In this document: positions 30,017 through 60,313 of the stretch, piece after piece
Layout of the letters: each line of letters opens with the position of its first letter
Numbering within the stretch: position 1 is the stretch's first letter
Assembly (NCBI GenBank): GCA_964468475.1
Contig: CAYXUL010000004.1
Span: 1,811 to 63,490, forward strand
Source of the DNA: an uncultured Ignavibacteria bacterium
GTDB taxonomy: Bacteria; Zixibacteria; MSB-5A5; CAIYYT01
Length of the DNA: 61,680 bases
Direction of reading: 5' to 3'
Made by a program: the position numbers and the translations under genes
The notes under the pieces: generated by a model
The model's database searches: none
Seen by the model: only the letters and a program-made list of their open reading frames with translations
Told to the model about the DNA's origin: nothing

Positions 30017-30034
30017 TGAAAGGCAAGCGCGCAA

Positions 30035-33400: not shown

Positions 33401-33416
33401 TAGAAGGAACTCTACG

Positions 33417-35364: not shown

Positions 35365-35389
35365 CACTAATCAGGATGGAATAGAAGAT

Positions 35390-39139: not shown

Positions 39140-39176
39140 ATCAATATCCTTTCTCACCACTCCCCGAGTCCTTTCC

Positions 39177-40811: not shown

Positions 40812-40815
40812 TAAT

Positions 40816-41946
40816 CTACCTCTGCACCGTTTCGTGTTGAATAGTCTTGTTGCTGGAGACTCCCGTGCGCCGTTCCCGCACGAGCCGCTTCCACATCGTC
40901 TCCACCAGTGATTGCGTTGTCCTGCCGATTGAATATTCTCTCCCCGAGCCGAACAGGGCGTTGACCGTGGCGCCGTTTCGCTGGTCGTTGACAGCAGAGA
41001 GTACAACTCCGCTCTGGGGGTCGGTGAGACGCAGACTCAAGCCGACTACCGGCCCCGCCTGGGAAACTCGGCCCCGTAACGGCAAGAACTCAAAAACTGT
41101 GCCGCTCACCAAAGCAGTGACATTCAGGCTGTCCGACAGTTCTTTCATGCCAACCTCGGTTGCCGATCCTATATAGAGCTGCCGGCTGCGGGTCAAAATG
41201 CGAGTCACATCACCGGGCTCAGCGACCGGGTATCCCAGCTGCCATACCTCGGCAAGTAGCAGATCTGATACCACGTCGCCCGCGGTCAGATAAAGTGTCG
41301 AATGATCGCAGGGGATTACCGCGAGCTTGCCGCTCTGCAGCAGCTTTCTGGCCTGCTTGCTGACTTTCGGCACTTTGAAGTTTGAGCCGGCGAAATGAGA
41401 ATCAAAATCCTTCATCAGCTCCCGAATTACTCTCGATGTTACTTTGCTCATTGAAGACGTCTCACCAATCCCCAGAAGCCCGCCGTAATCTTCTCCCGCT
41501 GCCGAGACGCACTTGGCCCAAACGACTTCCAGGGAGCGGCAGTCGTAGACCCTCAGGCAGAGTGACAATTCGGGTAGCTCTCCCGGTTGGTAGATTTCGA
41601 TTGCGCCGGTGACAACGAATCTGACACCGAGCCCTTGATTCAGTTCAGACGCTGCCACGGAGTTAACCACTCCCACGAGTCGCAGCCTATTCGAGCGCAT
41701 GAAGTCTCTGAGTGAATCACCGGTAATTAGATTACAGCGTTGCTCCAACTCGGACTTCACCGCGGATTCAACCGAATCGCGGGCTTCATTGAATTCGCTG
41801 TAGTTGGCCAACGGCACCAGCGCAAACCTTGTGGCAGCACTCTCAATTGTTGCTTTGGCCCCGGGGGCAAAAACAAGAATAAATAGAGCACATATCATCA
41901 AGATTGCGCTGTAGTCTCTTAGCATTGTTCTTGTGTCGTCAGCCAT
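40816..41946 (-). CDS. periplasmic/OM-associated protein with two tandem CsgG/LpoB/TolB-N-like domains
   Basis: 376 aa with an N-terminal hydrophobic anchor. Two repeats follow the pattern (F/L)A(L/V)(V/I)P...(spacing)...(V/A)L(V/I).G(T/A)(V/I), matching the neighbouring lipoprotein. Confidence 0.55.
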   Translation of the reverse strand: MADDTRTMLRDYSAILMICALFILVFAPGAKATIESAATRFALVPLANYSEFNEARDSVESAVKSELEQRCNLITGDSLRDFMRSNRLRLVGVVNSVAASELNQGLGVRFVVTGAIEIYQPGELPELSLCLRVYDCRSLEVVWAKCVSAAGEDYGGLLGIGETSSMSKVTSRVIRELMKDFDSHFAGSNFKVPKVSKQARKLLQSGKLAVIPCDHSTLYLTAGDVVSDLLLAEVWQLGYPVAEPGDVTRILTRSRQLYIGSATEVGMKELSDSLNVTALVSGTVFEFLPLRGRVSQAGPVVGLSLRLTDPQSGVVLSAVNDQRNGATVNALFGSGREYSIGRTTQSLVETMWKRLVRERRTGVSSNKTIQHETVQR

Positions 41947-41961
41947 CTTTTGACTTCAGTC

Positions 41962-42585
41962 TCAGTCGATTAGTGTATCGATAGTTTTGCGCACGCAACG
42001 TCGCGCAACTTCGCTATAGGAGCGCTGTTCCGTTCCGAAGAGCGATGACAAAAACGTGCGACTGCCCTCAGTGTCGGTAGCCGACCACACGATTTGTCCT
42101 TCCTCAGTCTCCATCATGCGGACATCGAGAGTTACAACTGTGGCCGGGCCGCCACTCGAGCGATTATTGGTCGACTCATTGACAGTGCCGATAATAAGTG
42201 CCTGCACGCCCAGCGTCTTACCCAGTTCCTTAATCTGATCCACCGTGAGCAGGTCTTTGCGCGGCAGCGTATATTTTCCCAGCGCCTTGATTACTTCTCC
42301 CGGCTCCACAATGTCGAATGCTTCCGCTGCCAGCAACTCTGTCATAAACAAGTGCGTCAGTCGTGGTCCTGCGCCTTGATCATTGGAAAGATTTTCAAAC
42401 GGAACTATCGCGACCCGTTCTACATAGGCGAAATTGTAATCCCGGTTCAGGAACACTGTTGGTTTGACTGTCGAGCAGCCGGAGAGCAAAAGTGCAAAAA
42501 GAACAGCAAGCGAGATGACTGCCGGGAGAGTCGCGTGAACAGTCTTCGCGGTAAGTCGGAGTTGATTCTTAGTAGTGTATTTCAT
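41962..42585 (-). CDS. lipoprotein, DUF799/LpoB/CsgG-like fold suspected
   Basis: Lipobox LLSGC. VAIVPFENLSNDQGAG ... LGVQALIIGTVNE ... VTLDVRMMETEEGQIVWSA is the pattern shared by CsgG, LpoB, PelC-like and TolB-N-like ring lipoproteins. Confidence 0.65.
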   Translation of the reverse strand: MKYTTKNQLRLTAKTVHATLPAVISLAVLFALLLSGCSTVKPTVFLNRDYNFAYVERVAIVPFENLSNDQGAGPRLTHLFMTELLAAEAFDIVEPGEVIKALGKYTLPRKDLLTVDQIKELGKTLGVQALIIGTVNESTNNRSSGGPATVVTLDVRMMETEEGQIVWSATDTEGSRTFLSSLFGTEQRSYSEVARRCVRKTIDTLID

Positions 42586-44696
42586 TAGAATCCCGTCCTG
42601 ATTCCGATCCTGAAGGACATCGTTGAAACTCCACCGGTGCCGGTAAGATCATTTTCTTGAACTGTACCGGTAAGCGTGGTACGACGCGTCAGGCTATAGT
42701 CAATTTGCGCTCCGTAACGCTCAGTACGAGAACCGGCATCGAAACTAAGCAGATAGGCGCTGGCGCTGGTGCTGACTTTTGGAGTCATGCGCCAGGTGAA
42801 GATAAAGTTCTGTGTCAGGCTGCGAACCAGAGCGTCCTCGATACTGTTGATATTGCCGCGCAGTTGCATATTTTCGCTGATCATGTAGGTGAACCCCAGC
42901 AGGTACTCTTTTCTGACGATCAGTCCCACTTCGTTCTCAGTGGTCTCACGGTAGCGATAGCTGGCCTGGCCTTCAAGCCACTGAGTCAGGCTGCCGATCA
43001 GGTAGGCCCGATATGACCAGCTATCCAGCTGTCGCGCGACCTGATTCAGCCTCGTTCGATTCAGTCCCACTTCCTGATTTAACTTCAGTTGAGGAAATAG
43101 ATCCGCACCCGCTCTTACAAAAGCGTTGTAGAACTCTTCCGACCGGAAACTGCTGATATAGTTGGCTCTGGCGTACGCTGAAGCCGTCAAATCGAGAGTT
43201 CTGATCGGAAGATACTCAAGCGAGTACCCTCCCGAGGTCGAGCGGTTTACTTCGATCATTGTGTTCTTGATATCGAGGAGGGCGAGCTCGCCTTGAATGG
43301 TCTGATGAAGATTGTCACTGATCTTATGACGAATGGATGAATTGAAGTAAGCCTCCCTGCGTCCCGGATCCTGCGCATTGCCCGGCTCGTCCCGAAGTGT
43401 GACATTTACATTGGACGACAGGTTACTTGAAAGGTGCACGGTGTTAGTAAGATCGATTTCATGGAAGAAGTTGTCGAGGGACAACTTGCTGGTTTGATTC
43501 ACATGCACAAATGCCTGCATTTCGGTTACAAACACCGAGTCGCTCAAATTGAAGCCGCTATTGACTACCTTGATGTAGCGTGTGGTAGTCTTATCGAATG
43601 AGATTTCATAGCGACTGAAACCGGGGCTGAAAACCGACTGGGCCCTACCCTGGCTTTGCCAGAACACGGCATCCTCCGAAGTAAATACCGTCCAGGCTAC
43701 CGAGTTGTCCGAAGGGACATCTGTGTAGATGTAGAGCATGTCGACGTCGCGCGCCGAACCAAGATCGGCGCCAATATTCCAGCCAGTGTTCCCGTCGCCG
43801 ATATTTATCGGCGGTACCGTTTCGCTGGTAACATCGCCGTCTGCCAAAGCGAGCACCGTATCAAGACCACCGGTCTCAGGCGACTCGTCACGAGCCGCCA
43901 GCCCGGCGAAAATCGGGATTTCACGTGGGATCGAGCCACCTGTCAGGTTCTCGTCCGTCTGTACCCGATAGTCGCCTCGGTAGCTAATCGACGACCGTAC
44001 GCTGCCGCCAATCCAGTTGAGTGATTGCTGTAACCGCAGTGAGTGATGCGTTGTCGAGCTGCGCAACTCGCGGGACCAGTCATCGGTTACGCGTCGTTTG
44101 AATGAATATTGGACCGAGGATCGCAGGGAATTATAGCCCGTCCCCAGTTCCAGAATTTGATCGCGGGTATCACGGTCGCTGCGATCTACCTGATTGTATC
44201 TTTTCTCATACCCCAAGTTGGCCTTCACATAGGGATAATTGGGAACCTGCGACTTGATTGTAACGCTGGCGATTTGCGTAACCAGTTCGATGCTTCGGTC
44301 GTTACTCTTGGTTTCCTGGTACTGACCGAGGCCGGTAACGGAAAAGGCCCGCTGCCGCCAATAGGCTTCAACGCTGGGCTGCAATTCAGAACGCCAGTTG
44401 TTTGGCCCGTCGCTCTGAGTAACGCCCACGTTGTAGTAGCGCAAGGAGGTGCGTCCCAGCAGATTCTTGCTGAATTGTTGCTGCCAGCCCAGCACGTACT
44501 CCTGGTCGAGATTCTCTCGTTTCTGGACATCGGTTTCTGACTGAAAGAAGCCGACTCGCAGCCGTCCCGATAGATTCTGTGAAATCCGTGCTTGTACTGA
44601 ACCGGCAAGAAGGAGGGTGACCGCGAAAGCGGATATGGCAGTGGTAGGCAGTCCCGTCCAAACCTTCTGTCGTTTTACTCGTTTCAATTCTCTCAA
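42585..44696 (-). CDS. large outer-membrane beta-barrel protein with an inserted F5/8-type-C (discoidin)-like domain
   Basis: 703 aa with a TTG start and a signal peptide ending in SVQA. Amphipathic beta-strand periodicity at both ends. C-terminus is ...FRIGIRTGF (terminal Phe). The central insert is residues ~255-398. The stop overlaps the next ATG (TAATG). Confidence 0.8.
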   Translation of the reverse strand: MRELKRVKRQKVWTGLPTTAISAFAVTLLLAGSVQARISQNLSGRLRVGFFQSETDVQKRENLDQEYVLGWQQQFSKNLLGRTSLRYYNVGVTQSDGPNNWRSELQPSVEAYWRQRAFSVTGLGQYQETKSNDRSIELVTQIASVTIKSQVPNYPYVKANLGYEKRYNQVDRSDRDTRDQILELGTGYNSLRSSVQYSFKRRVTDDWSRELRSSTTHHSLRLQQSLNWIGGSVRSSISYRGDYRVQTDENLTGGSIPREIPIFAGLAARDESPETGGLDTVLALADGDVTSETVPPINIGDGNTGWNIGADLGSARDVDMLYIYTDVPSDNSVAWTVFTSEDAVFWQSQGRAQSVFSPGFSRYEISFDKTTTRYIKVVNSGFNLSDSVFVTEMQAFVHVNQTSKLSLDNFFHEIDLTNTVHLSSNLSSNVNVTLRDEPGNAQDPGRREAYFNSSIRHKISDNLHQTIQGELALLDIKNTMIEVNRSTSGGYSLEYLPIRTLDLTASAYARANYISSFRSEEFYNAFVRAGADLFPQLKLNQEVGLNRTRLNQVARQLDSWSYRAYLIGSLTQWLEGQASYRYRETTENEVGLIVRKEYLLGFTYMISENMQLRGNINSIEDALVRSLTQNFIFTWRMTPKVSTSASAYLLSFDAGSRTERYGAQIDYSLTRRTTLTGTVQENDLTGTGGVSTMSFRIGIRTGF

Positions 44697-44712
44697 AAGT
44701 CTCCACTTAACA

Positions 44713-44742
44713 GGGCACCCGACCCGACTGGGTCGGGCGCCT
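44713..44742 (-). other. GC-rich intercistronic stem-loop immediately downstream of the omcS-like gene
   Basis: GGGCACCCGACCC-gact-GGGTCGGGCGCC(T). An 8-bp perfect core is extended by 3-4 bp after one mismatch. It sits in the 111-nt gap before the barrel gene and has no clear U-tract. Confidence 0.5.
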
Positions 44743-44807
44743 GTTTGTGCCCTAAAACGATTTCAAGGTCAGAAGGGCTATAAGATTCGGTAACTTCGGC
44801 TCAGCCG

Positions 44808-45863
44808 TTAGAACGGCATCTCGTCGCCGGCATCCTTCACGTGGCACTTGTTGCACAGTGAGCGCTGGTTCGGGTTGTTGTATGGATCCGGGATCGCATA
44901 CGAACCGGACTCAACTCCATCCTCGTCGAGGAAGGTGACATTCATATCCCAACGGGTAGCGTCGGGAGCTGATGTCGCGTGTGCACGGTGACAGGTGATG
45001 CAGGAAACCTGGCTGCTAGCCGTCGGTCCGGCGGTAGACGTAGTCGTATTGGCCGGGTCTTCAAACGGAACCTCTGCAAGATACGCCGTAGCCTGAGTCC
45101 CACCGGTCTGGTCCACAGTGCCGTTGTACAGGTTATAAGCATTGGCAATAGTGCCGCCTATAGTCACACCGGACGGGTGGATCAGCTTGGTGCCGTTGTT
45201 GTGGAAGTCGCCGTGGCAGTTTCCGCACCACGCACTCATACCACCTTTGTAGGCGGTGTGGCTGGTCTGGCTCTCCGAACCGGAGTTAATGCTGATTCCC
45301 TCGGCATCGGGAGCCGCATTGGTGAAGGAATACAGGCCGTCCTGAACCGAGGCAATGCCATAAAGCAGACGGAAATTGGTGTTTCCGTGCGGGTCGTGGC
45401 AACTGGTGCACTCAAGGTTGGCAGCCGGGAAGGTACCCCCCGGAGCCGTAGTCAGTGTACCATCGGGGCCGGAACCCATGCTGGGAGCGTTGACATTATG
45501 GCCGGCAAAGGAACCTGGAATAGGATTGCTTGCTCCGGCATGGCCGTCGTTAATGTTGTCTTCAGAAAGAAAGACAAAATTACCGCCACCCTTCTCCGGG
45601 GGCGGAGCCAGCGGGTCAGCTCCCCACACGGCACCATGACTGGTGGCATGGCAGGAGAGACACACGTCGGAAGCAGAAGCATACTTCAGCAAATAAGCAT
45701 TGCCGTTCGGGTTAGACGCATCCACTAATGCGCCGTCTTGGCTGTTGTGCATCGTATGACAGCCGCTGCAGTGGGCTACGCCGGCATCGTGGAACCCCAT
45801 CGCTACGCCGCTGAAGAGAATCGGTAGCGAGAGAGCTACTGCGATGATTAGAAGCTTACGCAT
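44808..45863 (-). CDS. omcS: OmcS-family hexaheme c-type cytochrome (candidate filament/nanowire subunit)
   Basis: 351 aa with 6 CxxCH. Blocks are collinear with my recollection of G. sulfurreducens OmcS. These are G|FHDAGVAHCSGCHTMHNS (OmcS FHSGGVAECEGCHTMHNS), TLTTAPGGTFPAANLECTSCHDPHG (OmcS TLTTAPGGTFPANQLHCSSCHDPHG), GMSAWCGNCHGDFHN, GTQATAYLAEVPFED, VSCITCHRAHAT and QRSLCNKCHVKD. Confidence 0.8.
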   Translation of the reverse strand: MRKLLIIAVALSLPILFSGVAMGFHDAGVAHCSGCHTMHNSQDGALVDASNPNGNAYLLKYASASDVCLSCHATSHGAVWGADPLAPPPEKGGGNFVFLSEDNINDGHAGASNPIPGSFAGHNVNAPSMGSGPDGTLTTAPGGTFPAANLECTSCHDPHGNTNFRLLYGIASVQDGLYSFTNAAPDAEGISINSGSESQTSHTAYKGGMSAWCGNCHGDFHNNGTKLIHPSGVTIGGTIANAYNLYNGTVDQTGGTQATAYLAEVPFEDPANTTTSTAGPTASSQVSCITCHRAHATSAPDATRWDMNVTFLDEDGVESGSYAIPDPYNNPNQRSLCNKCHVKDAGDEMPF

Positions 45864-45925
45864 AGTTAAAAAACCTCCGAGATTTACTCACTTAAAAGAG
45901 CTAGAATAAAAGGGGTTAAGCTTGG

Positions 45926-47002
45926 TTAGCGCATCACCTCCTTTGCAGAATTTTCTGGCAGTTGTGGTGGAAGAGAACTTTGAACAGGTCCATTTTCTGA
46001 GGTGCTATCCGGCCCATTCTCCAGCGAATCAAGCCGCTGCCTGATGAAATCCGGTAAGTCACAAACCTGAACGCGATTCATGAAGCGCTGCGAAATATAC
46101 AAACGCCCTTGGTTATCATGATCAATATAGGCAGGATGGTAAAAATCCCCCGGTTTCACTCCCATACCGCCGAACTCGCCCAGGAACTGCCCATTGGTTG
46201 AATAACACACTACTGCAAATCGATGTTTGTCCAGAACGGCAGCGATCTTGTGGTCAATGATCGTTACGTCGCTGGGGAAATTCAGCTCACCCGCCAGGTT
46301 TCCCCGTATTCCGAACGCCCGCACAAACTGGCCGCCTACGTCGTAGACGTAAACCTGTCCGAGCATCGGCGCCGGAAGGTAGAGGTGGTTGCCATCAATC
46401 TCGGGCTGTCCCAATATGGATTCCCTCCTTGACTTCTCGGTCAGGTCTCCCAGGACAGCAAATTGAGATTGGAATTTCCCTTCGGTATTGATCACGACAA
46501 CACTGAGATCAGCCCCGTTGACAACATAGATCAAATCGTTTTCTGAAATATTCATGGAAAGCGGCGCAAACCGGAAGCCCTCCGGAGTGTCGGAGAGTTC
46601 CAGCTGACCCAGCAGAAGTCCGTCATAGTCTACTTTGAAAATATGTGCGCCATCGGCCGTTGTACCGAGAACATAGATGTACCCGCGTGAATCAACTACC
46701 ACCGAGCCCACGTTGCGAAAGACATCTTTGCCGCCAAATTCGAACAGGTAAACACCGGCAGTATCTAAAACAACGACACGATTATTGCCCGGATCTGTCA
46801 CAAAGACTTCGCCGGCGCGCCGGTCAATAAATACATTCTCAGGCCTCAGGAAACCGTTGCCGGCCCCCGGCATCTCCAGCAAGCGCACGAATTCGGTCCT
46901 CACCGACAGGTCATCCCTGCTCTGTGCAAAGCTGGGGGCCGAACAGACAGTAACTGCCAAAAGCAAGGCAGCCACCGAAATGGACAAAGAATCGAGGTCC
47001 AT
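45926..47002 (-). CDS. NHL-repeat beta-propeller protein, secreted
   Basis: The start is set at ATG 47002 (MDLDSLSISVAALLLAVTVCSAPSFAQ). It has repeated NHL-type blades (VFVTDPGNNRVVVLDTAGVYLFEFG, IYVLGT..., LYISQRFMNRVQV). Confidence 0.8.
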   Translation of the reverse strand: MDLDSLSISVAALLLAVTVCSAPSFAQSRDDLSVRTEFVRLLEMPGAGNGFLRPENVFIDRRAGEVFVTDPGNNRVVVLDTAGVYLFEFGGKDVFRNVGSVVVDSRGYIYVLGTTADGAHIFKVDYDGLLLGQLELSDTPEGFRFAPLSMNISENDLIYVVNGADLSVVVINTEGKFQSQFAVLGDLTEKSRRESILGQPEIDGNHLYLPAPMLGQVYVYDVGGQFVRAFGIRGNLAGELNFPSDVTIIDHKIAAVLDKHRFAVVCYSTNGQFLGEFGGMGVKPGDFYHPAYIDHDNQGRLYISQRFMNRVQVCDLPDFIRQRLDSLENGPDSTSENGPVQSSLPPQLPENSAKEVMR

Positions 47003-47094
47003 CCGTGGGCAGAACTTCCGTTGTGTATGATTACTAAGCCAACCCATGCTGTCTGTTAAAAAGTCCTCAAGCGAAACCACCTATTCGCTTTACA

Positions 47095-47112
47095 TAGTGA
47101 ATTGATTCACAA
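47095..47112. promoter_or_regulatory. Rex/CRP-type palindromic operator candidate, TAGTGAA-TTGA-TTCACAA
   Basis: It matches TTGTGAA-N4-TTCACAA at 13 of the 14 arm positions. It lies ~100 nt upstream of ATG 47002 and 95 bp (centre to centre) from the other site. Confidence 0.5.
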
Positions 47113-47189: not shown

Positions 47190-47207
47190 TTGTGATTTTT
47201 TTCACAT
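47190..47207. promoter_or_regulatory. Rex/CRP-type palindromic operator candidate, TTGTGAT-TTTT-TTCACAT
   Basis: The core TGTGA-N6-TCACA is perfect (47191-47206). It lies ~196 nt upstream of the NHL/omcS-like operon start (47002, minus strand). Confidence 0.55.
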
Positions 47208-47447
47208 GAGCAGGTAAAGCTTGAGCTGCAAGGCGAGACTATTTTGTACAATGAACTAACCCTGAAATCGACTTATATTCGTTCGGCGATATGATAGACA
47301 ATTAGCTCGGGAAAGCAAGCGAAAAAAAGTACCTTTTTGTATCTTTTTTGGAATTCTGCTTTAATCAGGAATGATTTGTCCCTGTAATTTGCGAAGTTTC
47401 AAGCGCTTCTGTTTTGAAGTCAGGGCGTGTGGAGAGCTGATGAGTCG

Positions 47448-48284
47448 CTACCGACTCGACATTGCGAAGCCGTCCGAGCCATCGTGCCCCATATCGTGGC
47501 AGTCGGTACAAAGGCCTGCTTGAATGCCTTTGCTGAGGAGATACTTCTCTCCTGAAATCAGTGAGTGACACGTTTGGCACTCGATTTTGCCGTCGATCGT
47601 CACGACAGTGCTGGGGATCTGGTCGCGCAGCTTCAGCGTCGAGCCCGGCTTGCGATAGCCAGGGATCAGCTCGATCGAAAATGGGTGAGTTGCTGACACG
47701 TGAAAGCGTGGAAAATCCTCAAGTTGACTGGCATGAGCAGGAAGTCGACCGTCACGATTGTGGCAGGAAAGGCAGAATTCTGACGGGTTTGCTGCAAAAT
47801 TGCCTGTCGTGTCGCTATGGATAATCTCCGCGGCCAGCCTGTGTCCGGGACTGACTTCAGGAGAACTGGAATCACGGTGACAATCGAGACAAATGTCGAC
47901 ACCGCGAATCGCTACCGCAAGCGCTCCGGTGGTCTCGCCGATAACCAGTTTCTCCGGATGATGGAACGAATGGCAGGTCAAACAATTAGCGTTTGCGCCG
48001 GAGTGAAATGGTCCGGATTTTCCCTCGGTCAGGTTGCTGGTCTGGTGACAGCTCAGGCAATCCCTGCTGCTGGGCATGGCACTGAGGTCATCAGCACTCC
48101 CGGACATGCTGGCCTTGCTGGCCTGCATTCGGTGACAGGTACGGCACTCGACAGCGTTGTGCGCAGGAACCGGATTTTCTTCCGCGTCGCCTTCCGGCAG
48201 CCCCCAACCAAAATAGAGAAGCCCGATCATCAAGATCAGAACCGCAGCAGCAACCAGGGAACGAGAATCAAGCTGTAGGCGCAT
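47448..48284 (-). CDS. membrane-anchored heptaheme c-type cytochrome
   Basis: 278 aa. N-terminal TM is SLVAAAVLILMIGLLYFGWGL. I counted 7 CxxCH. Confidence 0.9.
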   Translation of the reverse strand: MRLQLDSRSLVAAAVLILMIGLLYFGWGLPEGDAEENPVPAHNAVECRTCHRMQASKASMSGSADDLSAMPSSRDCLSCHQTSNLTEGKSGPFHSGANANCLTCHSFHHPEKLVIGETTGALAVAIRGVDICLDCHRDSSSPEVSPGHRLAAEIIHSDTTGNFAANPSEFCLSCHNRDGRLPAHASQLEDFPRFHVSATHPFSIELIPGYRKPGSTLKLRDQIPSTVVTIDGKIECQTCHSLISGEKYLLSKGIQAGLCTDCHDMGHDGSDGFAMSSR

Positions 48285-48477
48285 ATTAGGTTTATCGTCA
48301 ACGCCATAAACCGCTATCAGTCTTCACCGATTTTGTCTGTGTCGAAATGAAAAGCACAAGGGGGTGAAATTTGCACACTGCTATGGAATTGAACGGGAGC
48401 TCACAGCCAGGGCGGGTATCGCATTCGCTGTGAAGTTGTGGTGATCGACTCAGGCCATTCCGGCAGCGCAAGGCAAA

Positions 48478-49200
48478 CTATGATTGGTCGCGATCACTTT
48501 CCTGAGCCCCTTCCGGTACGAACTTATATCCGGCTCCCCGCATCGTGAGAATGTACCTGGGGTTGGCAGGGTCGGGTTCGAAAATCTTGCGCAGCCGCAG
48601 GATGAAATTATCAATCGTGCGGGTAGAGGGATAAACATGATACCCCCAGACAGCATCGAGAATCATATCGCGTGAGACGACTTCATTCTCGTGCTCCGAG
48701 AGAAACTTCATCGTCATACATTCCTTCTGCGACAGCTCGGTCTCCCCGCTGGGTCCAACCGCCTGGTAGGTCTTGAAATCCACCCAATTATCGGCAAAGA
48801 CATAGCGCGACTCATCTTTCTCCACCGTGCTGTACCACACTTGTCGTCTGAATATCGCTGCCACCCGCAGCAGCAGTTCCTGCAGATCAAACGGCTTGGT
48901 GAGATAGTCATCGCCGCCGGAAAGGAAGCCTTCAACGCGATCCGATTGCCGATCGCGCGCTGTCAGGAAGAGAATCGGTATTCTTCCGCCGGCTTTACGA
49001 ATTTGGCGGCACACTTCCAGGCCGTCTTTGCCGGGAATCATGATATCCAGGATGATCAAATCGAATTGACCGTCACGATACATTTGCAGCGCTGCGTTAC
49101 CGTCAGTGGCAACCCCAACATCATATCCTTCCGCCTCAAGATTCAATACTAAACCCTCGGCGATATGTTCTTCGTCCTCAACTACCAGAATCTTCTTCAT
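48478..49200 (-). CDS. OmpR/PhoB-family response regulator
   Basis: The start is set at ATG 49200 (MKKILVVEDEEHIAEGL). Receiver Asp is in LIILDIMIPGKDG. The winged-helix end is MRGAGYKFVP. Confidence 0.9.
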   Translation of the reverse strand: MKKILVVEDEEHIAEGLVLNLEAEGYDVGVATDGNAALQMYRDGQFDLIILDIMIPGKDGLEVCRQIRKAGGRIPILFLTARDRQSDRVEGFLSGGDDYLTKPFDLQELLLRVAAIFRRQVWYSTVEKDESRYVFADNWVDFKTYQAVGPSGETELSQKECMTMKFLSEHENEVVSRDMILDAVWGYHVYPSTRTIDNFILRLRKIFEPDPANPRYILTMRGAGYKFVPEGAQESDRDQS

Positions 49201-49225
49201 GTTGTTCTCACAAGTCCTCAGCCGG

Positions 49226-50509
49226 CTAAGCGGCGTTCTCACTCGGCAGTTTAATCACGAAAGTAGTTCCTTTATCTTGCCCCTCCGATTCGATCATCAC
49301 GCTACCCCCATGCTCCCGCACAATCTGCTTGACGAGGAACAAACCGATCCCGGTACCCTTTACCGAACGAGTCTTTTCCTCACCGGTCCGATAGAAGCGT
49401 TCGAACACTTGCTCCTGCTCATGCCGAGCAATACCAACGCCATTGTCGCTGAACCGCAACTCACAGCCGGAATTGGCTCGCTGCAGAGACACTGACAAGC
49501 TCCTGCGTCCCGGTGGAGAATATTTGATGGCATTATCCGCCAGCGCTGTAACTACCCGGCGCAGGGCGTGGTAATCTGTTTTCGCATATATATCGGGTTC
49601 GATGGCTGTAGTCAACTTCAGATCGTACCTTTGAAACATCGGTTTCAGTTCGTCGAGATACTCCTGAAGGTCGGCGCTTAGGTTGGTGCGTACACGTTTC
49701 ATCTTTCGCGACTGCTGGCTCAACCGACCCGCTTCCAGCACGTTGTCAACCAGTCCCTCGAGTCGCTGACAATCTTCAACCATCTTGGGAATGAAAGTCT
49801 TTGATTTCTCTTCAGGAACCCGACCACTCGAAAGCGTTTCCAGGTAAAGTTTGATTGAGGCCACCGGTATCTTCAGCTCATGCGTCACCGCCTGGATGAA
49901 ATTCTCCTGTTGCTGCTTCATTCGCTCGGTCTGTCTCAGAGCGCGGAAAATCATAAATGCGCCCAGCAGCATCAGCAACACGAAGAAGGAACCTTCGGAT
50001 GCAAACATTATTACGTGCCGGTGTGCCTCATCTTCCAGCTTACCGAGTACTTTGGGCCGGAGTTTCAAATCCTGCGGGCTAAACGGGTCATCTTTCAGCT
50101 CACCTCTCAACGCAGATTCATTAACTGCGAGGTCCGGCGCAAACCGCTCAAGCAGGGTCGCTGGATAGTCCCGATCCAGCCACACCAGCGCACTGCCGCC
50201 ATCGATAGTGTTGACATGCAGATACCAGGTCGTGTCGATTTTGCCCACATTCCAGACAACCTCCCCCTCCTTATTCATTACCGTGGCGCCGAGCACCGGG
50301 CGATGAAGCGATTCAGATGACAAATTGGAGGTTCGCAGCCGATCCTGACCGGCGAGATACACAGAATATGTGGGGCGTAGCTCATTGTATTCCTGGTTCA
50401 GGTGGAAGGCTGTGATAGCCGCTGTTTGGCCGGCCTGCTGCTTGTGGAGTTTGAGCTGCTCTTCAGCGGAGTTCACCTGAAAATAAATCCACCACGAAAT
50501 CTGCCCCAT
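49226..50509 (-). CDS. sensor histidine kinase (HisKA + HATPase_c) with a periplasmic sensor domain
   Basis: H-box AVTHELKIPVASI, N-box DNAIKYSP and G-box GTGIGLFLVKQIV. The first TM helix appears to start upstream of the first ATG (see findings). Confidence 0.9.
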   Translation of the reverse strand: MGQISWWIYFQVNSAEEQLKLHKQQAGQTAAITAFHLNQEYNELRPTYSVYLAGQDRLRTSNLSSESLHRPVLGATVMNKEGEVVWNVGKIDTTWYLHVNTIDGGSALVWLDRDYPATLLERFAPDLAVNESALRGELKDDPFSPQDLKLRPKVLGKLEDEAHRHVIMFASEGSFFVLLMLLGAFMIFRALRQTERMKQQQENFIQAVTHELKIPVASIKLYLETLSSGRVPEEKSKTFIPKMVEDCQRLEGLVDNVLEAGRLSQQSRKMKRVRTNLSADLQEYLDELKPMFQRYDLKLTTAIEPDIYAKTDYHALRRVVTALADNAIKYSPPGRRSLSVSLQRANSGCELRFSDNGVGIARHEQEQVFERFYRTGEEKTRSVKGTGIGLFLVKQIVREHGGSVMIESEGQDKGTTFVIKLPSENAA

Positions 50510-53160: not shown

Positions 53161-53511
53161 ATGACCACAGGCTCGGTGAACGAGAACCCGGTTTACGCGG
53201 TGGCGGACCTTGATGGCTGCGGCACGATCCGGTGCAGCATGAACCCGGCGTTCAGTATCAGCTTGTCAGACGCTCCGGCGGATCACCCGTTCTTCGATTC
53301 AGCCGTATACGCAGGCACTTTCAACGGTACTGCTGATTCGTTGAACAACTGGACGGCTCTCTACGCCGCGGGATTCCTGGACGGTGGTTCGGTACCAGAG
53401 CTCCTCTGCGACGACGCAGTCTGTAGTGGTGCTTACTCCTTTGGCGATGCCGTATATATGATTAACTACATCTTCGGAGGCGACCCGGCTCCGAAATGTT
53501 CATGTAGATAG
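53161..53511 (+). CDS. hypothetical; possible remnant of a dockerin-like-tailed secreted protein
   Basis: 116 aa with no signal peptide. The C-terminus FGDAVYMINYIFGGDPAP resembles the tail of the 10308..13160 protein. A 12-codon ORF MKSLFSRNLLYR* at about 53090 looks like a severed leader. Confidence 0.3.
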   Translation: MTTGSVNENPVYAVADLDGCGTIRCSMNPAFSISLSDAPADHPFFDSAVYAGTFNGTADSLNNWTALYAAGFLDGGSVPELLCDDAVCSGAYSFGDAVYMINYIFGGDPAPKCSCR

Positions 53512-53678
53512 CTCGAAAAAGGGGAAAAGACACCTCATCCGACCTTACTTTCCACCTAGAACACCGGTAGCGGCCTCCGGGTGCTACCCGTCTCATTTTG
53601 TGGGGAAGAAACCAACCTAAAATCGCCGGATTTCCGCAAGCAGAATTTGCTTAACGAGTTAACATAATGGGATAAGTT

Positions 53679-53696
53679 TTGTGAAGTATATCACAA
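53679..53696. promoter_or_regulatory. Rex/CRP-type palindromic operator candidate, TTGTGAA-GTAT-ATCACAA
   Basis: TTGTGA-N6-TCACAA is perfect. It lies ~185 nt upstream of the FeS/NrfD/13-heme operon. Confidence 0.55.
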
Positions 53697-53809
53697 TAAC
53701 TGCCGATAAAGAGAATGGGGAAAATCGGACAATGATGCTATTTTATCCTTGACAATTGGAGGTTAAAGTAGCATTAATTGTCTGGATTTGCGGGTGAGTA
53801 GCGGAGACT

Positions 53810-53827
53810 TTGTGAAAAAAATCACAA
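53810..53827. promoter_or_regulatory. Rex/CRP-type palindromic operator candidate, TTGTGAA-AAAA-ATCACAA
   Basis: TTGTGA-N6-TCACAA is perfect, and the 8-bp arms are CTTTGTGA/TCACAAAG. It lies ~55 nt upstream of ATG 53874. Confidence 0.55.
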
Positions 53828-53873
53828 AGTACTCGCTATCCGTTGGAACTATTTTGGAATCGAGGTGAGCATA

Positions 53874-54782
53874 ATGGGTTTCACGCGCAGAGACCTGCTG
53901 AAATGGGCCGCAGTCGGCACGGTGTCGGCGGCTGCCGGTTCCGCTATGGCCGAAGACGACGAATTTGTCGCCAACTGCGACGACAACTACGGTGTACTGG
54001 TAGATACCGTCGTTTGCATTGGTTGTCGCAAATGCGAATGGGCCTGCAATAATGAACACAAATTGAAAAATGCCGATTTGGAGTCTTTTGAGGATAAGTC
54101 GGTATTCGAACACCACCGTCGCCCGACCGACGACGCATATACGGTCGTCAATCGGTTCTGGGCTCCCGAACAGAATGACAAGGCTTATACGATCAAGGTT
54201 CAGTGCATGCACTGCAATTACCCGGCCTGTGTGTCGGCTTGTATCGTGGGGGCGCTTAGCAAGAGCAACATCGGACCTGTGGACTATGATGCCTGGAAAT
54301 GTATCGGCTGCCGCTATTGTATGGTTGCCTGCCCGTTCCAGGTACCGGCCTACGAGTATCAGGAGGCGCTGAAACCCCGGGTACGAAAATGTACTTTCTG
54401 CAAGGAGCGCCTGACCGAAGGTCGTCGCCCCGCCTGTGTATCGATCTGTCCTAACGAAGCTCTTACCTTTGGTACCCGGGATGAACTTATCGAAGTTGCT
54501 CGCGAACGAATCAGGTCGCATCCCGGAAAATACGTTGATCATATTTTCGGTGAGAATGAGATCGGTGGAACCAGCTGGCTTTACCTGGCGGCGACCGATT
54601 TCACAAACACCGAGTTGCCGACTCTCGATTCTGAAAACATCCCTCATCGAACCGAGAGAATACAGCACGGCATCTTCAAATCATTCATCCCGCCAATTGC
54701 TCTTTACGGATTGCTGGGATTGATCATGCAGTCGAAGCCAGACAACGAGGAGAAGGAGGAAGAAGATGTCAGTGCATCATGA
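53874..54782 (+). CDS. Tat-exported 4x[4Fe-4S] ferredoxin subunit (HybA/NrfC/DsrO/PsrB-like)
   Basis: Twin-arginine leader MGFTRRDLLKWAAVGTVSAAAGSAMA. There are four Cys clusters (CIGCRKCEWAC, CMHCNYPACVSAC, CIGCRYCMVACP, CTFC...CVSICP). ATG 53874 is preceded by GAGGTGA. Confidence 0.9.
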   Translation: MGFTRRDLLKWAAVGTVSAAAGSAMAEDDEFVANCDDNYGVLVDTVVCIGCRKCEWACNNEHKLKNADLESFEDKSVFEHHRRPTDDAYTVVNRFWAPEQNDKAYTIKVQCMHCNYPACVSACIVGALSKSNIGPVDYDAWKCIGCRYCMVACPFQVPAYEYQEALKPRVRKCTFCKERLTEGRRPACVSICPNEALTFGTRDELIEVARERIRSHPGKYVDHIFGENEIGGTSWLYLAATDFTNTELPTLDSENIPHRTERIQHGIFKSFIPPIALYGLLGLIMQSKPDNEEKEEEDVSAS

Positions 54783-56019
54783 TATTCCTGCCCCCATCCA
54801 GAAGCCGTTTTTCACCAGAGGAACCCTCATTGTCGCCTTGGTGGCGGCATTAGGTCTCGGGGCTTATATTTATCGGCTCGTATTCGGCCTGCAAAGCGCC
54901 ACCAACCTCAACAATCAATACCCCTGGGGAATCTGGATTGCAATTGATGTGGCATCCGGCGTAGCGCTCGCAGCCGGCGGCTTTACAACTGCGGCGCTGG
55001 CTGACATCTTCCACAAGGAGAGGTATCACGTAATCGTCAGGCCGGCTTTGTTGACTGCAATGTTGGGCTATACATTCGTTGTCATCGGTCTGCTGGCTGA
55101 TCTGGGTCGCTACTATAATGTCTGGCATCCGATGATTCCGACCATGTGGCAGGGCAATTCGGTGCTGTTTGAGGTCGGTATGTGCGTGATGATCTATCTA
55201 ACAGTGCTCTACATCGAGTTCCTGCCGATCGTAGCCGAGCGCTTTGTCGGTCGCGTACACCTTCCCGGGCCGCTCCGGCTACTGAACGGCATCATTGATA
55301 CTTTTCTGAGAGTTTCTCGCAAGTTTCTGGGTCGCTTCATTTCGATCTTCATTATTGCAGGCGTGGTTCTCTCCTGTATGCATCAGTCGTCTCTCGGTAC
55401 GTTGATGGTGATTGCTCCCACCAAGATGCACCCGCTCTGGTACACGAGTTTTTCACCACTCATGTTTCTGCTCTCGGCGATTGCAGTTGGATTTCCGATG
55501 GTAATCTTCGAGTCGATTCTGTCAAGCCGCTCCTTTGGCCTGAAACCGGAGACTGGAGTGCTGGCGTCGATTGCCCGCTATACGCCTTTGCTTCTGGGCG
55601 TCTATCTTGGAGTCAAGATTGTTGATTTGACGATTCGGGAAGCATGGTCCTATGTCCTGGCTTTCGACTACTATTCACTCATGTGGATAGCGGAGATCAT
55701 GCTGGGTGTTGTGATTCCGATCATTATCCTGTCATCCCGGCGTCTCCGCCACAACTTGAACTGGCTGTTTACCAGCGCGGCTCTGGTCATTTTTGGCGTC
55801 GTGTTCAACAGGATCAATGTTTTCCTCGTTGCCTATAAACCACTTTACTCAACCACGACCTATTTCCCCTCGATCTTTGAGCTGGCTGTAACTGCCGGCC
55901 TGATTGCGACCCTGGTCCTCGTTTACAGATTCCTGGTATTGAACTTGCCGGTCATATCTTCCCCCAGAATCGAGAGCGGATCCAGGCCCGAAACCATGAG
56001 TGCTTTCAAGACGGCGTGA
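54766..56019 (+). CDS. NrfD/PsrC-family polytopic membrane subunit (quinone-interacting)
   Basis: 417 aa and about 10 TM helices. WGIWIAIDVASGVALAAGGF is typical of the NrfD family. It overlaps the FeS gene by 17 nt. Confidence 0.9.
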   Translation: MSVHHDIPAPIQKPFFTRGTLIVALVAALGLGAYIYRLVFGLQSATNLNNQYPWGIWIAIDVASGVALAAGGFTTAALADIFHKERYHVIVRPALLTAMLGYTFVVIGLLADLGRYYNVWHPMIPTMWQGNSVLFEVGMCVMIYLTVLYIEFLPIVAERFVGRVHLPGPLRLLNGIIDTFLRVSRKFLGRFISIFIIAGVVLSCMHQSSLGTLMVIAPTKMHPLWYTSFSPLMFLLSAIAVGFPMVIFESILSSRSFGLKPETGVLASIARYTPLLLGVYLGVKIVDLTIREAWSYVLAFDYYSLMWIAEIMLGVVIPIIILSSRRLRHNLNWLFTSAALVIFGVVFNRINVFLVAYKPLYSTTTYFPSIFELAVTAGLIATLVLVYRFLVLNLPVISSPRIESGSRPETMSAFKTA

Positions 56020-56030
56020 GGTGCGCAAAC

Positions 56031-57170
56031 ATGAAGAGAAGACACGTGACATTAACTTTCTTGTTTACAGCGGCAGTCGTGATTTTGCTCTCAGCGGGCG
56101 GCGCCTCCGCGCAGGATCACAAGGATTTTCCCTCGCTCGATTGTACGAAGTGCCACACTTGCAACGATCCTACTATTGACGAACCCTGTCTCAAACCATG
56201 TCCGCGTATTCAATCGGCTCATGAGACGGCCAAGCACAGCCTTACGGAAGCTCCCGACAGCATGCTGCTGAATTCGCTGGAAAATCTTTACGAGCCGGTG
56301 CGTTTTAATCACAAACTGCATGCTTCGATGGCGGAGATGGGCGCCGACTGCGCCACTTGCCATCATTACAGTCCACCTGGTGAAATTCAACCGTGTAGCG
56401 ACTGTCACAGTCAGACGGCTGAGTCAACTGATCTGTCGAAGCCGAACCTGAAGGGTGCCTATCATCGACAGTGCCTCTCCTGCCATCGTGAATGGAGCCA
56501 CGACACCAAGTGTGTTGTCTGCCATATTCCACGCGAAGGCGGTGCCATTGCCGAATCGATTTCCGACCCAACTGACATTATGGGTACCAGGCACCCGGTG
56601 ATCACGGAGCCGGTCAAGAGAGTATACACGACACCTTATAAGCCGGGGCCGATCGTCACTTTCCATCATATGGAGCATATCGAATTGTTCAACCTGCGCT
56701 GCGTAGACTGCCACAAGAAAGAAGATTGCGGCTATTGCCACGATCTTGAGCAGAAGACAATAGTCAAGAAGACACAGGCGCAGGTACATGCCGTTTGCAA
56801 CGATTGCCATGCCGACGATCGTTGTGCTAAATGCCATGACAACCGGGAGCGACCGGCATTTGTTCATGCCGACACCGGGTGGCCCATGAATCGTTTCCAT
56901 CGTGGGCTCGAGTGTCGAGCCTGCCACCCAACCGGTACTCGCATTGCGAAACTCAACACCGACTGCAATGCCTGTCACTCCGGATGGAACGAGACTAATT
57001 TCAGCCATGCAATCACCGGTCTTCTACTCGATGAGACACACTCTGAAATAGAGTGCGAGACTTGCCATCTCAAACGTAACTTCGCGGTCAAACCGGTGTG
57101 CACGGAGTGCCATGATGATGGCCGCACCTACGACGAAACTCCGCCGGGAGAATTTGTCAAGGTGAGATAA
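56031..57170 (+). CDS. periplasmic multiheme c-type cytochrome, 13 CxxCH motifs
   Basis: Signal peptide MKRRHVTLTFLFTAAVVILLSAGGASA. I counted 13 CxxCH. The start is at ATG 56031 (GAGGTG upstream). The GTG at 56016 used by the track is the alternative. Confidence 0.9.
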   Translation: MKRRHVTLTFLFTAAVVILLSAGGASAQDHKDFPSLDCTKCHTCNDPTIDEPCLKPCPRIQSAHETAKHSLTEAPDSMLLNSLENLYEPVRFNHKLHASMAEMGADCATCHHYSPPGEIQPCSDCHSQTAESTDLSKPNLKGAYHRQCLSCHREWSHDTKCVVCHIPREGGAIAESISDPTDIMGTRHPVITEPVKRVYTTPYKPGPIVTFHHMEHIELFNLRCVDCHKKEDCGYCHDLEQKTIVKKTQAQVHAVCNDCHADDRCAKCHDNRERPAFVHADTGWPMNRFHRGLECRACHPTGTRIAKLNTDCNACHSGWNETNFSHAITGLLLDETHSEIECETCHLKRNFAVKPVCTECHDDGRTYDETPPGEFVKVR

Positions 57171-58109: not shown

Positions 58110-58127
58110 TAGTTAAAAATTTCACAA
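58110..58127. promoter_or_regulatory. weaker Rex-like site, TAGTTAA-AAAT-TTCACAA
   Basis: 12 of 14 arm positions match. It lies ~110 nt upstream of hbd-ackA. Confidence 0.3.
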
Positions 58128-58236: not shown

Positions 58237-59136
58237 ATGGCTTTGAATAAAATTATCATAATTGGCGCCGGAACGATGGGGCAGGGAATCGCGCGAACCA
58301 TCGCCGAAACCGGCACCGAAGTAATTCTGTGTGACCTGAGTGCGGATATCCTTGAACACTCGCTGCAGTTTCTTTCTGACTCTCTCGACCACGAGATCGA
58401 GAAATGGGGAATTACCGCCTCTGAGAAGAAAGCAATCCTGGCGCGAATCACTACCACAACCGACTATGATGAACTGAAAACTGCCGATCTCGTAATCGAA
58501 GCTGTCGACGAAGATCGCGACAAGAAGCGCAAGTTGTTCGAGCGAATCGACAAGATCTGCCCGCGCGAGACGATCTTCATCTCCAACACGTCGACGATCT
58601 CGATTTCCGATCTGGCTGCGGCCTCTACGCGGCCTCACAAAGTGATCGGCATGCATTTCCTCAATCCGGTTCATAAGGTTCCTCTGGTCGAGTTGGTGCG
58701 AGGTTTGCGCACTTCCGATGAGACGGTGGAATTCACGCGCGAGTTCGCTTCACGACTGAACAAGCGTCCGATCGAAGTCAATGAATATCCCGGCTATGTC
58801 ACTACACGTATCATCGTGCCGCTTCTCAATGAGGCTATGCATGTGCTAATGGAGGGCATCGCGACAGCGGACGATATCGACGCTGCCATGAAGCTGGGAT
58901 TCGGCTTCAACATGGGCCCGCTGGCGTTGGCCGATATGATGGGGCTCGATGAGGTGATGAGCATGATGGAAAATCTGCTGCGCGAGTTATCCGAGCACAA
59001 GTACAATCCCTGCCCGCTGCTTCGTAAGCTGGTGCGTGCTGGACATCTCGGTGTCAAGACAGGTCAGGGTTTTTTCAAGTATGATGCTGAGGGCGTAAAG
59101 ATCGAGGAGGCCGTTCGTGAAAATATTAGTGCTTAA
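58237..59136 (+). CDS. hbd: 3-hydroxybutyryl-CoA dehydrogenase
   Basis: IIIIGAGTMGQGIA Rossmann motif, NTSTISIS, IGMHFLNPV and the C-terminal 3HCDH domain. The start is set at ATG 58237. Confidence 0.9.
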   Translation: MALNKIIIIGAGTMGQGIARTIAETGTEVILCDLSADILEHSLQFLSDSLDHEIEKWGITASEKKAILARITTTTDYDELKTADLVIEAVDEDRDKKRKLFERIDKICPRETIFISNTSTISISDLAAASTRPHKVIGMHFLNPVHKVPLVELVRGLRTSDETVEFTREFASRLNKRPIEVNEYPGYVTTRIIVPLLNEAMHVLMEGIATADDIDAAMKLGFGFNMGPLALADMMGLDEVMSMMENLLRELSEHKYNPCPLLRKLVRAGHLGVKTGQGFFKYDAEGVKIEEAVRENISA

Positions 59137-60313
59137 CTGCGGCTCTTCCTCGGTCAAGTATCAGCTTTTCGAGATGGAGAACCACTTCTGTCTCGCCAAA
59201 GGCACCGTCTCTCGTATTGGCATGTCAGGTGCGGTGCTCAAACACAAACCGCACGACCGGCCGGAAATTACGATTTCTGCGGAAATGCTCGACCATATCG
59301 TAGCAATCGAGCATGTGGTCGCGATCCTGCTGTCACCCAACCACGGCGTGATTAAGGATCGCTCCGAAATCATCGCCGTAGGACATCGCGTGGTTCACGG
59401 CGGCGAACGCTTCACCGAGTCGGCCTTGATCGACGACGATGTTATGCAGGAGTTGCGCAACCTGATAGATCTTGCACCACTCCATAATCCGCATAACATC
59501 ACCGGCATCAAAGCGACGTTGAAGAATCTTCCCGGTGTCCCCAACGTTGCCGTGTTCGATACGGCCTTTCATTATCGCATGCCTGAGCATGCCTACATTT
59601 ATCCCGTCCCTTATGTCCTTTACAAGAAATACCGTATCCGTCGCTACGGCTTTCATGGAATGAACCATCATTATGTCTCGCAGCGTGCCGCGGAGATGCT
59701 GGGCACGACGCGAGATAAATTGAAAATGATTACCTGTCATCTCGGCAACGGCGCGTCAATGTCTGCCGTCGATAACGGCGTCTCGGTCGATACTACGATG
59801 GGTTTCACGCCTCTTGAAGGTCTCATGATGGGCACCCGCTGCGGTGACATCGACCCGGCGATTATCCTCCACATGATTGGGCGCGAAGAGCTGTCGTTGC
59901 ATGAAGCCAACACCATGATGAATAAGCATTCGGGATTGATCGGCGTAAGCGGAGTCTCCTCCGACATGCGCGAAGTCATCGAGGCTAAGGAGGAAGGCAA
60001 CAAGCGCGCTAAGCTGGCGTTCGACATCTACTGCTATCGCGTGAAAAAATACATCGGCGCCTATGCCGCGGCGATGGGCGGTTTAGATGCGGTGGTGTTC
60101 AGCGCCGGTATCGGCGAGAACTCCGCTGAAGTGCGTGCGCAAAGCACTTCTGACCTGCAGTTCCTCGGCATCGATCTCGACGAAAGCAAGAATGCAGACG
60201 CGGTTGGCAAAGAGGCCGTTGTCAGCAAGGATGACTCCCGCGTCAAAGTGATTGTCGTGCCCGCGAACGAAGAACTGGTGATCGCGCTCGATACGATGGA
60301 ACTTGTCGGTTAG
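59117..60313 (+). CDS. ackA: acetate kinase
   Basis: MKILVLNCGSSSVKYQLF, VGHRVVHGG, RYGFHGMNH and CHLGNGASM. The GTG start overlaps the end of hbd by 20 nt. Confidence 0.95.
   Translation: MKILVLNCGSSSVKYQLFEMENHFCLAKGTVSRIGMSGAVLKHKPHDRPEITISAEMLDHIVAIEHVVAILLSPNHGVIKDRSEIIAVGHRVVHGGERFTESALIDDDVMQELRNLIDLAPLHNPHNITGIKATLKNLPGVPNVAVFDTAFHYRMPEHAYIYPVPYVLYKKYRIRRYGFHGMNHHYVSQRAAEMLGTTRDKLKMITCHLGNGASMSAVDNGVSVDTTMGFTPLEGLMMGTRCGDIDPAIILHMIGREELSLHEANTMMNKHSGLIGVSGVSSDMREVIEAKEEGNKRAKLAFDIYCYRVKKYIGAYAAAMGGLDAVVFSAGIGENSAEVRAQSTSDLQFLGIDLDESKNADAVGKEAVVSKDDSRVKVIVVPANEELVIALDTMELVG

Follow-up and report, generated by a model that had tools for sequence, protein, structure and literature searches.

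The window, as the whole 61,680-nt (61.7 kb) stretch analysed here is called, comes from contig CAYXUL010000004.1 of an uncultured bacterium and carries an 18-bp palindrome, TTGTGA-N6-TCACAA, in front of three operons. These are an operon for an iron-sulphur (FeS) protein, an NrfD-type membrane subunit and a 13-haem cytochrome c (the FeS operon), a cluster encoding an NHL/beta-propeller protein and a homologue of the cytochrome OmcS (the NHL/OmcS-like cluster), and an hbd-ackA operon. Comparison with related loci indicates that the palindromes are conserved cis-regulatory, protein-binding sites, and a single regulon shared by the three operons is supported by the same comparison. The sites are probably operators of a dimeric global repressor, for which the NADH/NAD+ sensor Rex is the leading candidate (probability roughly 0.6), and the element would best be filed as a Rex-type operator set. 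The conserved cis-regulatory finding itself is solid, and of a known kind.

The palindromes in the window and in related loci

Two perfect copies of the palindrome, TTGTGAAGTATATCACAA and TTGTGAAAAAAATCACAA, stand before the FeS operon with a start-to-start distance of 131 bp (53679 to 53810), as had been reported in an earlier note on this DNA; the arms of the 53810 site can indeed be extended to ACTTTGTGA/TCACAAAGT. No third perfect copy occurs in the window. Perfect copies averaged 0.01 in 100 dinucleotide shuffles, and none of the shuffles (0/100) reached the two observed. The further claim that the same motif precedes the omcS-like operon held in part: two copies are present there and are conserved, but neither is perfect, each having one mismatch (TAGTGAATTGATTCACAA at 47095-47112 and TTGTGATTTTTTTCACAT at 47190-47207). 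With up to one mismatch allowed, four sites were found in the window against 0.07 expected. When the pattern was relaxed to TTGTKA-N6-TMACAA, again with no more than one mismatch, exactly five window sites were returned, the fifth lying 5' of hbd-ackA at 58110-58127. All five are intergenic.

Conservation was assessed in 80 genome loci with FeS orthologues, in loci with NHL homologues (L083-L086 and L088, the L085 protein recurring on a short second contig, L086) and in 80 metagenomic hbd loci (L089-L168). At the FeS and hbd loci, a site was counted as conserved if it had at most two mismatches to TTGTGA-N6-TCACAA. Each of the nine closest FeS loci (L002-L010; 60-70% protein identity) carried a site 19-125 nt 5' of the start codon, and a tenth, L087, carried a perfect copy, TTGTGAATTATTTCACAA. 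The DNA flanking the site in L002-L010 could not be aligned. Retention of the FeS site in 10/10 closest loci despite such diverged flanks indicates that it serves a function. For the distal FeS site (53679), there was a counterpart in one other genome only, that of L087, where TTGTTATATTTTTCACTA lies 130 bp 5' of the proximal copy. The OmcS cluster was absent from the 8 kb on either side of the FeS orthologues in L002-L013.

For the NHL/OmcS-like cluster, the whole gene order was identical in L083, L084, L085 and L088: histidine kinase, response regulator, 7-haem cytochrome, a gap of 300-500 nt, NHL protein, OmcS-like protein, and the rest. Both palindromes were kept in these four other genomes (L083, L084, L085/L086 and L088), with a spacing of 93-96 bp in all five loci, the window included. 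Alignment of the five intergenic regions (~450 nt) revealed extended conserved blocks at a promoter-like element and at the two palindromes, and nowhere else. L084 and L087 proved to lie on one 493-kb contig of GCA_964576925.1, making this a second genome with the motif before both the FeS and the NHL/OmcS operons. The earlier proposal that the FeS/NrfD/13-haem and putative filament operons share a regulon is supported.

The hbd-ackA gene pair was syntenic in 74/80 metagenomic loci. A site within 300 nt 5' was found in 43 of the 72 loci with enough upstream sequence, over a background of ~0.04 per kb, and the window's own 58110 site recurred at the same distance in L089-L092. An unbiased dyad count over the hbd upstream regions placed TTGT-N8-TCAC near the top; enumeration of exact palindromes in these regions recovered no motif, because the hbd sites are asymmetric. 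The same operator type therefore covers a fermentation operon and is conserved there, so that the two cytochrome modules cannot be taken for one pathway on this ground, as the earlier note had done. In its scope the set resembles a regulon for global redox balance rather than a switch dedicated to one pathway.

Promoters and placement of the sites

The centre of the proximal FeS site lies 55.5 nt from the FeS start codon, close to the ~55 nt given previously, and the end of the site lies 46 nt from it. This start codon, the ATG at 53874, agrees with that of a 302-aa gene called on the identical public contig. The TTGACA hexamer described 5' of the site is present (Table 1), and lies 59-62 nt from the site in L002-L005, L008, L009 and L087. 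Near-consensus TTGACA-16/17-TAnnAT promoters were predicted in the FeS orthologues, placing the site centre at +32.5 to +35.5 in L002-L005, L008 and L009. In the window and in L087, both of which have weaker -10 hexamers, an estimate by hand put the centre at ~+34.5. Exceptions were L006 (+12.5), L007 (over the -10) and L010 (over the -35).

The gap between site and ATG is 19 nt in L008 and 39 nt in L005, too little for either to be an activator site for a downstream promoter. A reading of the proximal FeS site as a class II activator site, with a TATTTT 22 nt downstream of it in the window, was rejected on the same gaps and because the orthologues have no consistent downstream -10. The position had earlier been said to suit a repressor; the orthologues bear this out, with TTGACA-17-TAnnAT ~60 nt 5' of a site centred at ~+33 and the short L008 leader.

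A comparable arrangement was predicted at the other two operons. At the NHL/OmcS-like cluster, each of the five loci has the conserved TTGCyT-16/17-TATmmT, which puts the two sites at ~+86 to +90 and +181 to +183. In many hbd loci, an A-tract is followed by TTGCCw, 16 nt, TATATT and a site centred at +11.5 to +13.5, the end of which falls 17-30 nt before the ATG. Since most sites lie downstream of the predicted promoter, they would serve as operators for a repressor, not as activator sites, and repression appears to be the only single role that fits most site positions.

The candidate regulator

To describe the motif, 23 sites were compiled. Positions 2-6 (T2-A6; G5 in 22/23) and 13-16 (T13-C16) were invariant or nearly so, A7 was present in 21/23, and the flanks were neither conserved nor complementary beyond chance. 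In the spacers, 130/138 positions (94%) were A or T, in keeping with the A/T-rich centre (W4) of a Rex operator. The 18-bp inverted repeat of such operators, TTGTGAAnnnnTTCACAA, is likewise represented, the window sites having 0-2 mismatches to TTGTGA-N6-TCACAA. TTGTTA half-sites were common among the hbd sites. The 94% A/T spacer, A7 and the TTGTTA half-sites before hbd together fit a Rex operator better than a CRP/FNR site.

Known Rex systems offer close parallels. In S. aureus, Rex sites have the consensus TTGTGAAW4TTCACAA, coincide with promoters and mediate repression (PMC2883068). In Clostridiaceae the motif TTGTTAANNNNTTAACAA is predicted before thl-crt-hbd (PMC9600882), and T. maritima Rex has been crystallised on TTGTGATAAATTTCTCAA (PMC8836258). 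Respiratory complexes and NADH-linked fermentation make up the usual Rex regulon (PMC2883068, PMC5317091). The palindromes described here share with the Rex operators of Gram-positives, Thermotoga and Thermus their form as 18-bp inverted repeats, their core and their A/T-only centre; they too fall within or just 3' of predicted promoters of the genes that they would repress, and occur more than once at some targets. From the predicted promoters, the sites fall at ~+33 for FeS (8 loci), ~+12 for hbd and +86/+181 for NHL. The targets are also of the expected kind, NADH-linked and respiratory or fermentative: hbd-ackA, hbd operons being known Rex targets, the FeS-NrfD-multihaem complex, and the multihaem/OmcS cluster. 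The resemblance to Rex operators is what suggests redox-responsive regulation.

Rex is also encoded by Caldithrix abyssi, in which a candidate site, cTGTGAATCAATTCACAt, lies 5' of rex at the rex-hydABC locus (Cabys_3675-3679; PMC5317091); the 15-nt core of this site is identical to that of the window's 47095 site, TTGTGAATCAATTCACTA. There, however, the site precedes rex and an [FeFe]-hydrogenase, whereas here the sites precede cytochrome operons and hbd-ackA, with no rex nearby. We take the phylum of C. abyssi to be related to the lineage of the window. Other departures from described Rex systems are the host, an uncultured Zixibacteria-like lineage, and the inclusion of an OmcS-homologue cluster and an Hmc-like FeS-NrfD-multihaem module among the targets. 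In addition, A12 is frequent, two operators stand far downstream (+86 and +181), and both the rex gene and the NADH response are putative here.

Several observations weigh against repression by Rex. All transcription starts and promoters are predicted from sequence, and a consensus promoter scan did not call the FeS promoter of the window, because its -10 is weak. Some placements are activator-like: -42.5 in L010, ~-38.5 for the window hbd site, and ~-61 in L137 and L167, the last two in a region shared with a divergent gene that, by eye, is 4-hydroxybutyryl-CoA dehydratase-like. At +86 and +181, two operators stand a long way downstream if they simply block initiation. T12 of the Rex consensus is present in only 13/23 sites, with A12 in 10/23, including both perfect window sites, and the TGTGA-N6-TCACA core is common to CRP/FNR-family sites. 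No site was found at more distant FeS orthologues, including L011-L013, L022 (a complete Zixibacteria chromosome) and the Ignavibacteria, Melioribacter and Caldithrix loci. Finally, no rex gene (winged-helix N-terminal domain PF06971 and Rossmann domain PF02629) was detected in a Pfam scan of nearly all large open reading frames (ORFs) of the window, and a tblastn search of the window and 168 loci (~1.5 Mb) with B. subtilis Rex, a query validated against PDB 2vt2, gave no rex match.

Other, locally encoded regulators were considered and rejected. The window ORFs of ~165-250 aa are a methyltransferase, an FMN reductase, an outer-membrane protein, ECF sigma factors and similar proteins, and the genes upstream of hbd in the metagenome loci are enzymes or housekeeping genes. 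The OmpR-type two-component pair that is syntenic with the NHL cluster was set aside as the binder of the palindromes, OmpR-type regulators being known to bind direct repeats.

The strongest competitor to Rex, though an unlikely one, is a regulator of the CRP/FNR family, of the class of CRP, Desulfovibrio HcpR and S. aureus ArcR. Its signal would be a nucleotide, haem or redox ligand, and it would act mainly as a repressor or in a dual role. The core and 6-bp spacing are identical to those of this class (TGTGA-N6-TCACA for E. coli CRP, TTGTGA-N6-TCACAA for HcpR), and A12, where present, gives the ATCACA half-site of the E. coli CRP consensus. The sites at -38 to -42 or ~-61 resemble class II and class I activator sites. 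In Shewanella, CRP governs anaerobic respiration and outer-membrane cytochromes, including the extracellular electron-transfer cytochromes mtr/omcA. CRP-class regulators, however, typically activate from upstream positions, mostly at -41.5, -61.5, -71.5 and the like, whereas most sites here are 3' of the predicted start or 17-30 nt from the start codon, a placement that is unworkable for an activator. TGTTA half-sites, which are tolerated at hbd, lack the G that E. coli CRP needs in TGTGA, and the spacer is almost purely A/T. The Pfam scan of nearly all large window ORFs gave no crp gene, a tblastn search of the window and the 168 loci with E. coli CRP gave no match, and L087 offers only a 146-aa cNMP-binding protein with no helix-turn-helix match.

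The gene for this protein (L087, 623-1063), with cNMP_binding as its sole recorded Pfam match, lies ~9 kb 5' of the FeS operon in GCA_964576925.1 and is followed by response-regulator/SpoIIE phosphatase genes. The FNR box was rejected as a description of the motif. It is also palindromic and tied to anaerobic respiration genes but differs in half-site and spacing, and no site reads TTGAT-N4-ATCAA.

A repressor of another, possibly undescribed family that uses TGTGA-W6-TCACA in this lineage is improbable. It would agree with the failure to find a regulator gene in the window or the loci, and with regulation that is limited to one clade, orthologues below ~60% identity having no site. In 18-bp motif, spacer composition, site positions and targets alike, the set nevertheless coincides with one well-known family, Rex, and a convergent operator is the less parsimonious explanation.

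It is very unlikely that the palindromes act instead as RNA hairpins in 5' leaders, through stability, processing or translation: most sites would be transcribed from the predicted promoters, the proximal FeS site sits in an extended 38-nt hairpin (-16.6 kcal/mol, z = -6.2) and the distal NHL site gives z = -4.0, but the arm sequence is invariant across three unrelated operons and many genomes without compensatory changes, the flanks pair no better than chance, shuffled sequences fold as well as the proximal NHL hairpin (z = -0.8), the hairpins lack a following U-tract, and the distal FeS site (~-97) and those of L007 and L010, which overlie the -10 and the -35 respectively, lie outside the predicted transcript. 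The 38-nt stem, an inverted repeat at 53800-53837 (AGCGGAG-ACTTTGTGA...TCACAAAGT-ACTCGCT) around the 53810 site, is peculiar to the window, its extension not being conserved in orthologues.

Mechanism, target genes and neighbouring features

With Rex as the preferred binder, a simple scheme can be drawn, in which we infer the transcription starts, the identity of the protein, its NADH response and any cooperativity. At low NADH/NAD+, the repressor would sit on operators just downstream of or over sigma-70-type promoters and block initiation or early elongation. Accumulation of NADH, for example when electron acceptors are limiting, would cause it to leave the DNA. Three electron outlets would then be derepressed together: the FeS-NrfD-13-haem membrane complex, the extracellular cytochromes of the NHL/OmcS-like cluster, and hbd-ackA, a fermentation operon that consumes NADH. 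The second operator at each cytochrome operon probably tightens repression by cooperative binding. The paired operators are 131 bp apart and flank the promoter at FeS, and 93-96 bp (~nine helical turns) apart at NHL/OmcS. This fixed geometry, with sites at +33 or paired at about nine helical turns in a long leader, may reflect looping or roadblock repression.

A broader suggestion, held tentatively and at slightly less than even odds, is that, in a clade of Zixibacteria-like uncultured bacteria, an OmcS-type extracellular system and its FeS-NrfD-multihaem partner in the inner membrane are switched through Rex sensing internal NADH/NAD+, not by external acceptors, and that the same switch starts fermentation. 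Extracellular electron transfer would then form part of a redox-overflow regulon. Being common to three operons, the conserved operator yields a concrete hypothesis, that intracellular NADH/NAD+ gates electron export. To our knowledge, the regulation of extracellular electron-transfer genes outside Geobacter and Shewanella is essentially unknown.

In the library of papers that was searched, none containing 'Rex regulon' or 'Rex binding' also mentions multihaem cytochromes, a keyword search gave none linking Rex with extracellular electron transfer, and none was found naming Zixibacteria together with Rex. Porin-cytochrome operons have earlier been noted in Zixibacteria (PMC7005843). What appears to be new here is the lineage and the regulon content, with an OmcS-homologue cluster, an Hmc-like module and hbd-ackA co-regulated. 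If the binder is an ordinary Rex, this would extend the regulon of a well-known sensor, and would not be a new mechanism. In practice the operator, as a position matrix combined with the promoter architecture, can serve as a marker for further regulon members in Zixibacteria genomes.

Table 1. Target operons, candidate operators and predicted promoters in the window.
Feature	Coordinates	Strand	Details
FeS-NrfD-13-haem operon	53874-57170	+	Tat-signal 4Fe-4S protein 53874-54782; NrfD-type membrane subunit 54766-56019; 13-CXXCH cytochrome c 56016-57170
NHL/OmcS-like cluster	35928-47045	-	~11 kb; NHL/beta-propeller protein 45926-47045; OmcS homologue 44808-45863
NHL/OmcS-like cluster, further genes			703-aa protein without Pfam match 42585-44696; CsgG-like protein; two further ORFs; multihaem cytochromes 37157-39205 and 35928-37157
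hbd-ackA operon	58237-60313	+	hbd (3-hydroxyacyl-CoA dehydrogenase) 58237-59136; ackA (acetate kinase) 59117-60313
Proximal FeS candidate operator	53810-53827		TTGTGAAAAAAATCACAA; perfect match; centre ~+34.5 from predicted start
Distal (auxiliary) FeS candidate operator	53679-53696		TTGTGAAGTATATCACAA; perfect match; ~-97 from predicted start, 131 bp 5' of proximal
Proximal NHL/OmcS-like candidate operator	47095-47112	-	TTGTGAATCAATTCACTA; ~+181 in leader; fully conserved block in five-locus alignment
Distal NHL/OmcS-like candidate operator	47190-47207	-	ATGTGAAAAAAATCACAA; ~+86; 95 bp from proximal
Weaker hbd-ackA candidate operator	58110-58127		TAGTTAAAAATTTCACAA; 110 nt 5' of hbd-ackA; right half a possible -35 (TTCACA-18-TATTAT)
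FeS promoter, predicted sigma-70-type	53749-53777	+	-35 TTGACA 53749-53754; 17-nt spacer; weak -10 CATTAA 53772-53777
NHL/OmcS-like promoter, predicted	47291-47318	-	-35 TTGCTT 47318-47313; 16-nt spacer; -10 TATCAT 47296-47291; conserved block

The three reading frames of the FeS operon overlap, and their order is kept across many phyla. Pfam matches were Fer4_11, NrfD and Cytochrom_CIII; the FeS protein has a twin-arginine motif (RRDLLK), and the cytochrome has 13 CXXCH motifs. Matches of the 13-haem cytochrome in PDB were the Desulfovibrio high-molecular-weight (HmcA) and nine-haem cytochromes, and one homologue of the FeS protein carries the source name 'Protein DVU_0535'. The module is Hmc/Nhc-like in that a single operon combines a Tat-exported 4Fe-4S subunit with an NrfD-family membrane subunit and a multihaem cytochrome of class III. 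In the NHL/OmcS-like cluster, the product of 44808-45863 is a true OmcS homologue by sequence, with six CXXCH motifs and a match to PDB 6ef8/6nef (E=4.1e-43), and the 609-aa ORF at 39177-41006 has a peptidyl-prolyl isomerase counterpart in L083, L084, L085 and L088. Pfam matches for hbd were 3HCDH_N and 3HCDH, and Acetate_kinase was recorded for ackA on the identical public contig. Named homologues were mostly from Zixibacteria/GN15, and the closest genome loci are labelled Zixibacteria/GN15 or Ignavibacteria.

Directly 5' of the NHL/OmcS-like cluster, 5/5 genomes carry genes for a histidine kinase, an OmpR-type response regulator and a 7-haem cytochrome (minus strand, 47448-50509 in the window; ~6300-9600 in L083-L085 and L088). 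The NHL/OmcS-like promoter has a weak -35 (TTGCyT), 5' of which stands a partly conserved A-rich block with spaced TAC motifs. The weak -35, this block and the adjoining kinase/regulator pair suggest extra activation by the local two-component system. Elsewhere in the lineage, promoters of hbd (L089-L168) and NHL (L084, L085, L088) loci appear to consist of an A-tract, cTTGCCw, 16-17 nt and TATAtT, and AAAA-N5-TTGC is the commonest dyad upstream of hbd. The pattern may be a promoter signature peculiar to this lineage, with an UP-like element.

Beyond the cluster, the 28910-35815 region encodes a 368-aa PAAR-motif protein, a 1121-aa protein without Pfam match, a weakly PQQ/BamB-like protein, an unmatched protein and a DcrB-like protein, possibly a cluster for toxin delivery or for surface proteins. 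In related loci, the neighbourhood of the OmcS cluster likewise ends with the DcrB-like gene. Just 5' of the FeS operon, a 116-aa ORF without Pfam match and with a Cys-rich C-terminus (53161-53511) is 50% identical to an ORF in the same place in L002 (7240-7503), and is followed by a terminator-like hairpin at 53578-53590. In L110, L114, L118, L137, L141, L145 and L153, a 472-488-aa ORF divergent from hbd shares the palindrome-bearing intergenic region. It resembles 4-hydroxybutyryl-CoA dehydratase, as assigned by eye, and may be a further regulon member.

Weaker matches to the motif were also seen. At 20961-20978, a two-mismatch match, TTGGGAGATTTTTCGCAA, falls between genes for an outer-membrane beta-barrel protein and an ECF sigma factor; the invariant bases of the core are missing from it, and it probably arose by chance. 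Near-matches inside multihaem cytochrome genes (L083, 18198-19266; L051, with eight in 17 kb) probably stem from the Cys-His codons (TGT CAC) of CXXCH motifs, and would yield false positives when cytochrome-rich genomes are scanned.

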